Source of the DNA: Spizellomyces punctatus DAOM BR117
Lineage: Eukaryota
Strand: one strand, 5' to 3'
Assembly (NCBI GenBank): GCA_000182565.2
Contig: KQ257451.1
Length of the DNA: 64,000 bases
Below are positions 10,076 to 17,879 of the stretch, one piece after another. Made by a program: the position numbers and the translations under genes. Under the pieces are notes generated by a model. It was not told where the DNA came from and did no database searches. It saw only the letters and a list, made by a program, of their open reading frames with translations. Numbering within the stretch: position 1 is the stretch's first letter; each line of letters starts with the position of its first letter.

Positions 10076-13260
<3,185 letters not shown>

Positions 13261-13477
13261 CGGTGATGTACTACTAATATTCCGGAAATATATCACACTT
13301 GCTTTGATTTCTTGAGTGTGCATCCTTTTACTGGTGTGGACTTTTCATGTGATCAAAGCCTTGCACAGGCACGCTCGGTAAAATCCTCACCAGAAATCAA
13401 AGGATATTGGCAAGAGGGCCTCCACGGCGAAATGATTATAATGTAATGTACAACGGAAAATTGAAGCCCGTCCATCA

Positions 13478-13796
13478 TCATGCGGACTTGTCGGCAGAGG
13501 ATGGTGGAGGCATTGGAATGTTATCAAAATCGTCACGGCCCGTCTTGTACATTGAATAACCAACTAGATTTGAGCGTTCCAGAGTGTGAGTCCAGGACAT
13601 CCCAACCATAAACTCCAAGGTCATGAGCAACAGCCAACTTACATATAGCCAGCGTTCCTCCCAAAAGAATTCCTCCCACTATCATATTCCTCTTACGGTA
13701 CGGCCGCATAATCTCCATTTTGGCGGCCATGAGCTGCTCGGGCGTCATGCTACGTTGGTAGGCGTTCAAATGTCTGTACGCTTCCTGAACTGGCAT
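13478..13796 (-). CDS. Small mitochondrial membrane protein, COA3-like (cytochrome c oxidase assembly factor 3), 2 exons
   Basis: M...MRPYRKRNMIVGGILLGGTLAI, then an intron, then ...MYKTGRDDFDNIPMPPPSSADKSA*. This resembles the fungal Coa3 pattern (RPY..N, one TM helix, DDF.D). Confidence 0.6.
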
Positions 13797-13950
13797 CTAT
13801 ACTCAACCATGTTAGTGATTGCATTAATTGCAAGTGTCAATGCGCGGTATATGCGATTAACTCACGTTATGGAAATCAAAAGGGTGAGCAGGCTGTTGAG
13901 GTGCTGTCGGAAGGGGCGGAGGATGAGCCATTTTGGTGATTTCCAAAGCG

Positions 13951-15753
13951 TTAACTTGCAAGCGAACTAGTTGCTTGTTCACTGTGCGCGTTGCCAGGAC
14001 ACCCAGAGATGCTAGTGACGTGGTCATATAGTGTGCCCCGTTTGTGGACTTTTTCAACCTTGCCTTCTCGTCGTCGATAAGGTCTTGAATGAGGTCGTTC
14101 TTTGAATTTTTTCTCCACAAACTCAGATGAGGAACAGCGAGGGCAAACAGATGAGGTCTTGTACTCGTCGAGAAGGAAACAATCAATGCGGTTGCGCTTA
14201 AAGAGGGTGCTCCAGCCTTTCGTCTTTGATGAGGTCTGAAATCTCGCAGTTCGACCAGCGTCGCTCCAATCACCCATCACAATGGTAAAGTTCCCAAACT
14301 TGTTGCGCAAGTTGGATATGAGGTTCGATTCGCTTCGCTGCCGATTGATGAAGGAGTGCCATTTCCATCGCATGTGGGCAGGGTGGGAGTAGAATTCCTT
14401 GCGACGATCCCAATCAGCGCGGCGAACGAGAAGGTAGCGAGTGAAGTCCATGAGGTTCATTGTTTTGTGGGATGGTATTCGTGATTCTATGAGATCAACT
14501 CCAGCTTCTTCCTTCATTGCTTCTCGTCTCTTTGCAAATCGCCGGCTACCTGTCTCCACGGCTCGCTGGTTGGCGGTGTAGCGAAATGTCGTACCACTGT
14601 TGTCTTGGCAGTAGAGAAGATCGCGCTTGTTTGGGTCGATAACGATGACATTTTCTGCTGCTCGACAAGCAGGCAAGTTTTTCTCCACATATTGCGCTTT
14701 AACGTCGTCCTCTAAACTCTTTGCTGACTTTCTCGCTCCGCGCTTTCCACACTTGTCTGCTTCTGGGTGCTTTAGGTATACAGACACCGAGGTTCCGTCC
14801 GTCGTGATCGAGCCTTCAAAACACATTCCATGACGAGATCTAAAAGCCTTGTTCTGCAGATTACAGATGCGCAACCATAAATCGACCTTCTCTACGGCTT
14901 CTGCTTCTCGTCGCGTGATGCAGAGGATGTGGGCGTAGAGAATGAGCGTGTCGATGCGAATATGGGACTGAATCAGAGACCGATGAAGAGGGATTGCACT
15001 GAACCGACGGAAGCCATGTCGTTCATACAGCCCAGAGAGTTTGCAGTATGCAGGAAAGAAAGCGAGAGGGTCTACAGCAACCGAATATGCGAACGGCTGG
15101 TCAGAAAGGGGAATGAAGGACCACATCTCTTCTAGAAGTTCACTCTCTTTAGCAGTCAAGTCATCAAGTGACTCGGGCACAATATCAAAAAGGAAAATTG
15201 ACTTCAAGTAGCGTAGCCGAGCAAAGAAAGCTTTCCGCGCTTCACTCTTTGGAGGCCCTTTCCGTCCCTTCACGTCGAGCCGCAGATTGATATACCGAAG
15301 GAGCATCTGCATGAAATGCTCTTGAACGTTGACTTTCAGGTTCGTCATCATACTCACTGTCAGGTAATTGACTGATTGCTGCTCGCCTCGTAGATTTGGG
15401 TGAACAAAGCCGACGATTTGGCAGTACCGTTGAACATATGGCAGCAAACAATCCCGCCATGCCTTCTTTGCTTCCTTTCTTGGATGCCAAGCCTCCCCCT
15501 TGTTGAGAAGATAGAGAATCGCTTCGATTGTATCTTCATTTACCGTGGGAAAGGTTGGTGCAGATAGGATGTAGAATTTGAGAGCGTGGGAAGCGTGGTC
15601 GGCGAGTTGATGGATGATGGCGATGTAATCTAAAAGCCGTTGGCAGTAGATGTCGTTTGGCAGGAAAGCTTTTGCAAAGGAAGTCTTGTTGCAGGTATGT
15701 AAGCAAGTAGGTTTGTCGAGTTTTTCGAGCCTTTGCTTTTTCTTTGGTGGCAT
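13951..15753 (-). CDS. Fanzor1 (TnpB/Cas12-like RuvC RNA-guided endonuclease), C-terminally truncated: 570 Fanzor codons plus a 30-aa foreign tail
   Basis: Starts MPPKKKQR (NLS-like, ATG 15753). Has SITTDGTSVS, RuvC-I VIVIDPNKRD (Asp codon 14635-14637), VMGDWS, RuvC-II LLDEYKTSSVCPRC (Glu 14164-14166; CxxC 14134-14145). Very similar to recalled SpuFz1 up to ...EKVH, then diverges; no second Cys pair and no NRD RuvC-III. Confidence 0.92.
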   Translation of the reverse strand: MPPKKKQRLEKLDKPTCLHTCNKTSFAKAFLPNDIYCQRLLDYIAIIHQLADHASHALKFYILSAPTFPTVNEDTIEAILYLLNKGEAWHPRKEAKKAWRDCLLPYVQRYCQIVGFVHPNLRGEQQSVNYLTVSMMTNLKVNVQEHFMQMLLRYINLRLDVKGRKGPPKSEARKAFFARLRYLKSIFLFDIVPESLDDLTAKESELLEEMWSFIPLSDQPFAYSVAVDPLAFFPAYCKLSGLYERHGFRRFSAIPLHRSLIQSHIRIDTLILYAHILCITRREAEAVEKVDLWLRICNLQNKAFRSRHGMCFEGSITTDGTSVSVYLKHPEADKCGKRGARKSAKSLEDDVKAQYVEKNLPACRAAENVIVIDPNKRDLLYCQDNSGTTFRYTANQRAVETGSRRFAKRREAMKEEAGVDLIESRIPSHKTMNLMDFTRYLLVRRADWDRRKEFYSHPAHMRWKWHSFINRQRSESNLISNLRNKFGNFTIVMGDWSDAGRTARFQTSSKTKGWSTLFKRNRIDCFLLDEYKTSSVCPRCSSSEFVEKKFKERPHSRPYRRREGKVEKVHKRGTLYDHVTSISGCPGNAHSEQATSSLAS

Positions 15754-15906
15754 GATGATATCTGTAGAAAAGCCTGGGAAAATGGGCGACGACTTATATA
15801 GGATTTTTTGGATCAAACCATAATTCATGAGTCTAAATCGAGTAAAATTATGATTAAATTGGTTGGAATCTCTGTACTAGTACCAATACCAATCGGCTCC
15901 GCACTA
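14029..15906 (-). mobile_element. Spu-1-like Fanzor1-carrying TIR element, internally/3'-deleted, putative TA target-site duplication
   Basis: Left end on the minus strand reads CA-TA|GTGCGGAGCCGATTGGTATTGGTACTAGTAC (15908->15874). The other end keeps only ...CAC|TA (14033->14029) after a 10-nt non-Fanzor junction segment. It contains one long intronless ORF, unlike nearly all host genes. Confidence 0.8.
15874..15906 (-). repeat. Left terminal inverted repeat of the Fanzor element plus TA
   Basis: Plus strand GTACTAGTACCAATACCAATCGGCTCCGCACTA closely matches the recalled 3' end of the SpuFz1 omegaRNA/right TIR (...GUGCUAGUGCCAAUACCCACCGGCUCCGCACUA), as expected for an inverted repeat. Includes the 10-bp palindrome GTACTAGTAC. 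Confidence 0.8.
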
Positions 15907-16175
15907 TGTATTCCGTTCACACGGATGGCATATCTGTTTTTCCTCGTAGACATATATATATCGGCGGCGCCTCAGATACTTGTCACCTTCAACTGCTATA
16001 GAATTATCTTTTTATTGAATTTGCTCCCAAGTCCTTTCGTTATAATTGGTGTGCAGTATAAGGTCCGGATAACTTGGCAGCTAAAGATTTTCTGCATACC
16101 ATGGACAAATTGTGGACAATAAAGTCTAGTCTTGCAGAGGGTAGAATACTCACATGGTCTGCAAGAAATAAAGTC

Positions 16176-17142
16176 CTATATCTCAATCATTCTCTTTAAA
16201 AACTCAGGGGCGCGGAGAAGCCTTCGTCCTTCAGAGATCTCCATTCTCGGATAGACATCATCGAGAAAATAGTATACATGCCCCACAGCCAGCCCCATGA
16301 GGTCGCCTGCCGGCCATTGGTTGTTCAGGAGGATGGTAAACCCGAGTAGCACCCATGGCAGGTACGGAGCAGTAAAAGTGAAGATCCCCAGAAAGTTCAT
16401 TCGAATGAATGCATTTCGTCGTGACCAGACGTAAACGAGCATGAAAGTTAGAGGAGAAGAGAGGAACGGGATGGAGGTACGAGCAGGGAGTAGAGGCGAC
16501 ATGCCCTGAGAAGAAAAGGTTGGTTACTATTACATGACTTTTTGACGTATATCACGTCAAACTTTTCCGACGTAAGCTTACGATTGTTGCCAGCATTCCA
16601 AATAATAGAAACCATAGGAAGTCAGCCGTCCTCCCACGGAAAGAGCCTTCCTCCAACATACGGCTATATCGGACGCTGGAAAAACAACATTTGAGCATTT
16701 GCTTGTCCGCTTCACCAGACTAACACTAGCCATACGTACAGGAAGAACATGTGGAAGAGGAAGTCGAGCGAAAAGTTTCCAAAGTACAGGAAGCTTGTGA
16801 TAAGTCGCCACCACTGTGATGCACCAACCAAATCAGTCACACACCAACAATCATTAATGGTGGACCAACAGGGACGCAGAAAGCTGCCTCAAAGCCTCAT
16901 GTACTTACTTGTCTGGATCGCCATATCAGCGTCCAGTTGAAGTAAAGGTGAAAGGGCGACACGAGATCCAGTTGCTACATGAATGCAATTGTGATAGATC
17001 CGTCGGTGATCGATTCCATTGTGCCAAGGGAAACCCCACATACTGAACTTACGCAGGCAAGGGTGGTCAACACCACAGCGGTAACATATGTCCGTGTGAT
17101 GACCGGTACTTCATAGTACCACTCTTCTATAGGAAATGGCAT
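16176..17142 (-). CDS. Derlin (Derlin-2/Der1 family ERAD membrane protein)
   Basis: [62 protein letters not shown] and [12 protein letters not shown]. Confidence 0.92.
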
Positions 17143-17879
17143 GCCGAACTATCTTTGCCCAGGCTTGGAGTCGGGTCGCGGATCTGTGTTATCCACCACC
17201 ATGACGTGTTCCTTGTGCTTGGTACTCACGTGTCAAGCAAGCGAGAACTACAAACTGCATCTACTCCACACAGCGATAATGCCCAGCTCTTTCCAAAACA
17301 TCTTTTTTAAACCAAGAGATATGCTCCAGGTAGATGATGTGATGATGATGGATTTGAGTGCATTGCTGTCATCGGCGGATGAATCATTTCACATCTATGC
17401 AAACCAATGCACGCTTGCAAATTTCCAATAGTCTTTTGACATGAGTATCCAACCCATATCTTAACATTTGCAGTTTGAGCAGTTTTGCATGACAAAAGCG
17501 CCCGTTGAATGAAGCCTTGTTTACATGCCGCAGTCATCATGGCCGTGGCACAGGCATCGGAATGTGTATGACTGTGCCATTATGGCTATTGGGTCACAAG
17601 CGGGCGGCAAGAGGTCAGCAATTGTGGTCTCAGAACGGCTTCAGGGCTTTCAACAACATCTTACGTGCTCGTCCTAGATTCCGCCACGTCTGAGAACGAG
17701 CGTTCTGCCAACGCATCTCGTGTCGAATACTTTTAAACAGCATACTCTCTGTTTTCTTACACTCTTGGCTGTCAGTCTCGGAGTGAGCGTTACGTGACCC
17801 TGCTCGATCCCGCCTCCTGCGCATCTCGCGTTTGTGACCTTTCCCTCAAAACAACGTTACCCTTTCTTTTCTGGCAACA

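Follow-up and report, generated by a model that had tools for sequence, protein, structure and literature searches.

In a 64,000-nucleotide stretch of the Spizellomyces punctatus DAOM BR117 genome (contig KQ257451.1 of GenBank assembly GCA_000182565.2; hereafter the window), the minus strand carries a Fanzor-like open reading frame (ORF) at 13951..15828. This locus is very probably a 3'-truncated, immobile remnant of the transposon SPu-1, which is either decaying neutrally or still too young for its fate to be told. A deletion, rather than incomplete copying, probably took about 250 bp from the element, comprising the last 57 codons of the Fanzor1 gene, the omegaRNA scaffold and the right inverted repeat, and the frame now runs 30 codons into the flank, just upstream of the transcript of the neighbouring gene. 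As such a copy would make no guide RNA of its own, would not cleave DNA and would have only one transposon end, it is expected to drift as an immobile and presumably neutral remnant. That its frame is still open would reflect how little time has gone by, or how few private changes have accumulated, since sequence was last shared with other copies.

The Fanzor1 remnant and its missing 3' end

When the 625-codon ORF was compared by phmmer with all PDB chains, it matched chain 8gkh_P (MBP-SpuFz1, entry 8GKH) with E=0 and 1123 bits, the second-best match being Parasitella parasitica Fanzor1 (1.1e-35). Codons 26-595 of the query were aligned with residues 395-975 of the 1032 residues of this chain, giving homology to SpuFz1 across WED, REC and RuvC that ended at ...GKVEKVH. 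All of the residues named by Saito et al. 2023 (48/48) were found at their stated numbers in P0004 (SPPG_07727, 638 aa), a protein that was therefore taken as SpuFz1 itself, with the window copy corresponding to SpuFz1 1-581. The coding remnant (14044..15753, minus strand; codons 26-595) spans WED, REC, most of RuvC with D383, N385 and E541, and the first CxxC of the zinc finger (cysteines at codons 562 and 565), and zero stops and zero frameshifts were detected along its 570 codons. In the published numbering, the aspartate of RuvC-I is D383, which belongs to VIDPN and not to the MGDWSD motif; the original prediction is corrected in this detail.

The conserved start of the ORF is codon 26, as all the relatives in an alignment of 20 sequences (A1, window copy included) start at the MPPKKK motif encoded there. 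The 25 codons upstream, missing from all of these relatives, are added by a non-conserved in-frame ATG (15828) located in the 5' leader of the element (15754..15876, minus strand), and the window copy's own database protein (P0002) is 600 aa long. A Pfam-A search with the ORF returned 0 families, the library copy used being apparently without PF26935; the protein database assigns PF26935.1 to the ORF protein and its relatives, and this family appears to be newer than that library copy. No further Fanzor copy was found elsewhere in the 64-kb window.

The last homologous codon is that of His595 (14046-14044), and the breakpoint was consequently placed at 14043..14044, with Fanzor-derived sequence from 14044 upwards and unrelated sequence from 14043 downwards. 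The tail (13951..14043, minus strand) consists of 30 non-homologous codons (14043-13954) and a TAA stop (13953-13951). In the alignment, every intact relative runs on past this His with a second Cys pair and the WNRD motif, whereas the window copy does not. The RuvC catalytic set (D383, E541, D606) is thus incomplete, with D606 and WNRD gone and D383, N385 and E541 kept, and so is the CCCC zinc finger of the NUC/TNB domain, from which the GCxNxxC pair is gone and the first CxxC kept. The lost segment corresponds to SpuFz1 residues 582-638, which hold the second Cys pair, the RuvC strand with D606 and the C-terminal helix.

The C-terminal 75 aa of seven intact relatives were also searched by tblastn against all 64 kb. 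The matches that reached 14044 had E values of 2e-9 to 3e-6, nothing was found beyond this position, and the E values of the other matches were at least 0.38. A spliced downstream exon that could restore the NRD motif, a possibility considered in the original prediction, was therefore absent from the 64 kb by tblastn, and the truncation stands. Likewise, the three frames of the 444 nt past the breakpoint, when aligned with the C-termini of eight relatives, scored 17-26, compared to a shuffled median of 25-26. A slight resemblance between the tail and the missing zinc-finger segment in the MAFFT alignment was attributed to chance, as the local alignment scored 22, compared to a shuffled median of 26.

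The 3' omegaRNA scaffold (about 75-80 nt) and the right inverted repeat were also missing, as judged from repeats, Rfam and spacing and not from a direct omegaRNA search. No reverse-complement partner of the candidate left repeat was detected in the 64 kb, where only chance 8-10-mers appeared, and neither ghost elements nor a displaced right end were found within the window. Rfam gave no match on 12500-17500, which is weak evidence, as this database may have no Fanzor omegaRNA family. Furthermore, the gap between the Fanzor stop and the in-frame ATG of the next gene is only 19 nt. The element keeps about 1.86 kb of roughly 2.1 kb, with about 250 bp gone. The end of homology at GKVEKVH, the loss of the second Cys pair, the catalytic Asp and the omegaRNA region, and the 30 codons plus stop that follow 570 codons free of stops and frameshifts had all been proposed from the sequence, and were borne out by phmmer, the 20-sequence alignment, the ORF coordinates, tblastn and the repeat search in the window.

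Published accounts already cover this family, partial copies included. SPu-1 is about 2,100 bp long, with 33-bp terminal inverted repeats and TA duplications, and is present as 17 full-length copies, nine of them with intact ORFs (Bao and Jurka 2013), whereas 42 Fz loci, 19 of them full-length, were reported for S. punctatus by Saito et al. 2023. The window copy resembles SPu-1/SpuFz1 in its protein sequence (about 87% identity over SpuFz1 1-581), its start motif, the conservation of D383, N385, E541, the first CxxC and the TAM-reading residues (TAM, target-adjacent motif), and a candidate left end with CA plus a 30-nt repeat reading CATA. In contrast, it has no residues 582-638, no omegaRNA scaffold and no right inverted repeat, and carries instead a 30-codon unrelated tail, together with a private change, Y345C. 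Like the partial Fz loci described by Saito et al. 2023 in the same genome, it is a partial copy of the family, but it differs from them in its clean 3' truncation with a long open frame, in place of frameshifts or internal loss.

Four public runs (X1, X3, X10 and X22) were mapped on 13200-16400 at 96% likeness. A single X1 contig of 462 nt, at a depth of 2.9 and from a run that may share its source with the assembly, covers 13627-14088 without a single difference, crossing the junction and extending 44 nt into the Fanzor sequence. The contig is unspliced across both introns of the neighbouring gene, and we read X1 as low-coverage DNA because its depth is nil at the positions best covered by the RNA runs. 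The contigs of paralogs break off precisely at 14043/14044 (from_end 15 at position 14058), as expected for the branching of a repeat graph, and X10, which covers only the host genes and 15019-15660, was uninformative on the junction.

Private divergence, open frame and sense transcription

The search of the protein collection yielded 56 matches, one being the window's own 600-aa protein and 16 being further proteins of S. punctatus DAOM BR117 of 392-638 aa, with identities of 81-88% by BLASTP and of 82-90% over shared columns, the remaining ones being relatives at 60-75% identity and more distant chytrid proteins. The 90% cluster of the window protein has one member on one contig. No other protein among the 56 matches covers the tail, and a second example of this truncated form was not found among them. 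However, the WNRD motif is missing in 8 of the 17 S. punctatus proteins, namely the window copy and seven others with comparable C-terminal loss. Among the same 56 matches, P0044 is a partial Fanzor1-like protein (37% identity, 466 aa) encoded on a 3.3-kb contig and labelled as a Bacteroidota metagenome-assembled genome; this contig may be eukaryotic but binned into a bacterial genome.

Only six residues in 553 columns are private to the window copy (L246F, V/I295L, Y360C, E375D, T486M and R540S), a number among the lowest in this set of 17 S. punctatus proteins. Of the 20 terminal branches of a maximum-likelihood tree, that of the window copy was the shortest (0.055), and P0009 was placed as the sister of this copy (support 98). 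Both values fit the recent deletion in an otherwise intact copy that the original prediction had offered as one of its two outcomes. Intact copies each have only about 1-3% of private residues despite pairwise identities of 82-90%. Such mosaic sharing of variation suggests that SPu-1 copies recombine or undergo gene conversion, or that the family is divided into deep subfamilies, and because variation is shared in this way, the terminal branch and not the pairwise distance was used as the relevant clock.

With the actual codons of the remnant, 4.2% of substitutions produce a stop and 70.6% change the residue. The six private residues thus translate into about 8.5 substitutions, with a probability of 0.70 that no stop arises, whereas the terminal branch of 0.055 translates into about 31 residue changes and a probability of 0.15 (indels left out in both cases). 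Therefore, with probabilities of 0.15 to 0.70, an open frame is expected under neutrality. Columns invariant in all the other sequences make up 31% of the total and received two of the six private changes, as expected for uniform, neutral change. Conserved sites do not appear to be avoided by the private changes, and these protein-level proxies are compatible with neutrality.

Transcription in the sense orientation was followed in X22, which consists of stranded raw reads (about 6% of the run was read) from one condition and from a library that looks 3'-biased; according to three host genes, its first mate lies on the RNA's own strand. The runs X3 and X10, which had been flagged as possible DNA, contain contigs within 13421-13866 that skip the introns 13564-13642 and 13797-13865, and were taken as RNA or cDNA because these contigs are spliced. 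In X22 the sense (minus) depth was 0-1.1 along the Fanzor ORF, compared to 49-73 along the adjacent gene, that is about 1%. Over the tail, the minus-strand depth was 0.61 (bin 13949-14055), compared to 49.5 in the next bin (13842-13948), and no X3 RNA contigs were present over 13949-14043. A sense mRNA has no support in these runs, although with one library and one condition its absence is unproven.

Several observations weigh against a neutral remnant. The private changes at universally conserved columns are two, within the 0-3 of intact copies and below the 4-10 of visibly degraded ones, the 570 codons are preserved as in intact copies, and the terminal branch is the shortest in the tree, a pattern that purifying selection would also give. 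The evidence on expression comes from one stranded and apparently 3'-biased run and from short contigs that are not assignable to one paralog, and X3 has contigs identical to the locus inside the ORF, such as that at 14069-14161 (depth 33.6), which carry no strand information. Moreover, the TAM-reading residues R96, Q129, Q130, N133 and R291 and most of the heteroduplex contacts are intact, and bacterial TldRs can tolerate a C-terminal truncation that removes the zinc finger and RuvC parts with their RNA-guided binding intact (bioRxiv 10.1101/2023.11.30.569447).

Left end, neighbouring genes and antisense transcription

The putative left end of the SPu-1 element was located at 15877..15908 (minus strand), with a 30-nt inverted repeat at 15906-15877, CA at 15908-15907 and CATA across the boundary. 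A paralog contig matches the locus at 96% or above up to 15911 and is then followed by 255 unlike letters, and the X1 depth drops from 35.9 in the multi-copy bin 15768-15874 to 3.4, the level of a single copy, in the bin 15875-15981. This boundary, the exact position of which we infer, fits the published SPu-1 ends, with 30-nt inverted repeats, CA upstream of the 5' repeat and a CATA TAM (Saito et al. 2023).

A Der1-like gene and a small host gene flank the element, and all three share one orientation. The upstream neighbour was identified from the last exon of the Der1-like gene (16176-16523; PF04511, 2.5e-27). Minus-strand RNA of this gene passes the putative left end of the element (about 15906-15911) and ceases near 15770-15830, which apparently places the 3' terminus of the Der1-like mRNA within the transposon leader. 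On the other side, the first exon of the small gene (13866..13948, minus strand) was defined by spliced contigs and reads, its start near 13948 being set from binned depth only; it has an in-frame ATG at 13931-13929, it is followed by the two introns given above, and its frame differs from that of the Fanzor ORF. About 95 nt separate the breakpoint from the start of its transcript, but the gene is well expressed. The 30-codon tail thus corresponds to roughly 93 nt immediately upstream of the host transcript, and the description of the tail as host-derived in the original prediction is reasonable. Beyond the small gene there is a plus-strand ORF with a gelsolin repeat (PF00626, 8.1e-9), which we take to be the end of a Sec23/24-type gene.

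In the antisense (plus) orientation, the X22 depth was 0-3.4 in the body of the ORF and 20-104 over 15447-15874. Plus-strand reads began in the bin 14056-14162, with a depth of 2.67 compared to 0.07 in the bin before. An antisense poly(A) signal, ATTAAA at 15853-15858, was found together with poly(A) sites at 15868 and 15871 (15853..15871 as a whole, plus strand), which are supported by the loose ends of 22 and 25 reads and lie 10-13 nt past the signal. The antisense reads carry mixed paralog letters, 97 of 130 differing from the locus at 15823, and the RNA was therefore assigned to several SPu-1 copies. Antisense transcription over the Fanzor 5' region may then be a family-wide feature of SPu-1.

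These data bear on a role of the remnant as DNA, in which it would provide the small host gene with its upstream promoter context, perhaps also give rise to a divergent antisense transcript terminating at the ATTAAA of the leader, and take in the 3' end of the Der1-like mRNA. We regard such a role as unlikely, although it is compatible with a neutral decay of the ORF. It would account for a host transcript that begins near 13948 at a depth of 49-73, for plus-strand reads that start close to it and pile up before 15868/15871, and for Der1-like minus-strand coverage that passes the left boundary into 15768-15874 at a depth of 47. However, with their mixed letters most of the plus-strand reads may stem from other copies, nothing shows a dependence of the host gene on sequences of the element, and an adjacent remnant of a transposable element is the default in compact genomes.

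RNA- and DNA-binding residues and comparison with bacterial TldRs

The second outcome offered by the original prediction was that the truncated protein is kept as a nuclease-dead, RNA-guided DNA binder, or as a sink for omegaRNA, in analogy to the TldRs of bacteria. OmegaRNAs made at other SPu-1 loci, full or ghost, would be loaded onto it in trans, making it a eukaryotic analogue of these repressors. Such a protein could draw on the 134 ghost loci reported to have omegaRNAs that work with SpuFz1 (Saito et al. 2023), it has the open frame and the few private changes that a retained gene would show, and it has lost D606 with its TAM-reading residues and most heteroduplex contacts kept. Nevertheless, the open frame is also what neutrality would give, and most of the residues named as holding stem-loop 1 of the guide RNA were lost. 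In SpuFz1, stem-loop 1 of the omegaRNA is bound by 14 named residues (Saito et al. 2023), of which nine have been deleted here (L583, W596, S598, R601, Y602, W603, N604, M607 and C611), together with D606, which contacts G20 via water, and half of the CCCC zinc finger. The truncation is thus predicted from the published structure to remove most of the stem-loop-1 interface.

When the published contact and catalytic residues were considered as a whole, 35 of 48 were unchanged and three were substituted (W570Y, K483R and Y345C). W570Y is also present in several intact copies, whereas Y345C is private. The latter corresponds to codon 360 (14749..14751, minus strand), which encodes Cys at a position of the WED loop occupied by Tyr in 19/19 of the other aligned sequences, and Tyr345 of SpuFz1 contacts the TAM base dT1, where unwinding starts (Saito et al. 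2023). The quality of an AlphaFold2 model built on the 20-row alignment was too low for the fold to be assessed (mean predicted local distance difference test score, pLDDT, 49.8; predicted template modelling score, pTM, 0.42).

The comparison with the TldRs of bacteria and phages (Wiegand et al.) leads in the same direction. Like them, the window copy belongs to the TnpB family and has a RuvC site broken by a C-terminal truncation of the zinc finger and RuvC, and the tolerance of TldRs to such truncation is a point in favour of a functional binder. TldRs, however, are encoded next to a guide RNA that they have kept, neither of their transposon ends remains, their association with target genes is conserved, and they bind DNA demonstrably. 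The window copy has no adjacent guide RNA gene, keeps a candidate left end although the right one is gone, occurs once (one member on one contig) and has a near-zero sense depth in X22. In a TldR-like binder the RNA-binding interface would be expected to persist beside the dead RuvC, but here 9 of 14 contacts have been lost, along with half of the zinc finger. No description of a natural nuclease-dead or domesticated Fanzor was found in the literature consulted, and the TldR preprint only predicts that eukaryotic nuclease-dead cases may exist (bioRxiv 10.1101/2023.11.30.569447).

Considering also that the RNA present over the ORF is antisense, with sense RNA at about 1% of the neighbours, that this truncated form was not found a second time among the 56 matches and that seven other S. 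punctatus paralogs show a comparable C-terminal loss, retention as a dead binder or an omegaRNA sink is very unlikely. Slighter still is the chance that the remnant is translated at a low level, loaded in trans, and occupies CATA-flanked targets without cutting them or titrates omegaRNA away from active copies. Of the original prediction, therefore, the recent deletion fits the data, and the dead binder or sink was left without support by the lost stem-loop-1 contacts, Y345C and the near-zero sense RNA.

Least probable of all is an assembly artefact in which a complete Fanzor copy was wrongly joined to an unrelated flank: mis-joins are frequent with multi-copy repeats such as these, and the short-read paralog contigs do stop at the breakpoint, but the junction is bridged without differences by the X1 contig, and contiguous, expressed single-copy genes flank the locus on either side.

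If the truncated protein did act as a dead binder, it would be the first TldR counterpart in eukaryotes, or else a dominant-negative regulator of Fanzor homing encoded by the transposon itself; eukaryotes, like bacteria, would then turn OMEGA nucleases into RNA-guided regulators, and the protein would be a natural scaffold for a compact dFanzor. As the 3'-truncated remnant that it very probably is, the locus offers a worked example: because the copies of the SPu-1 family share their variation, a truncated one whose frame stays open over a long stretch is no evidence of selection.

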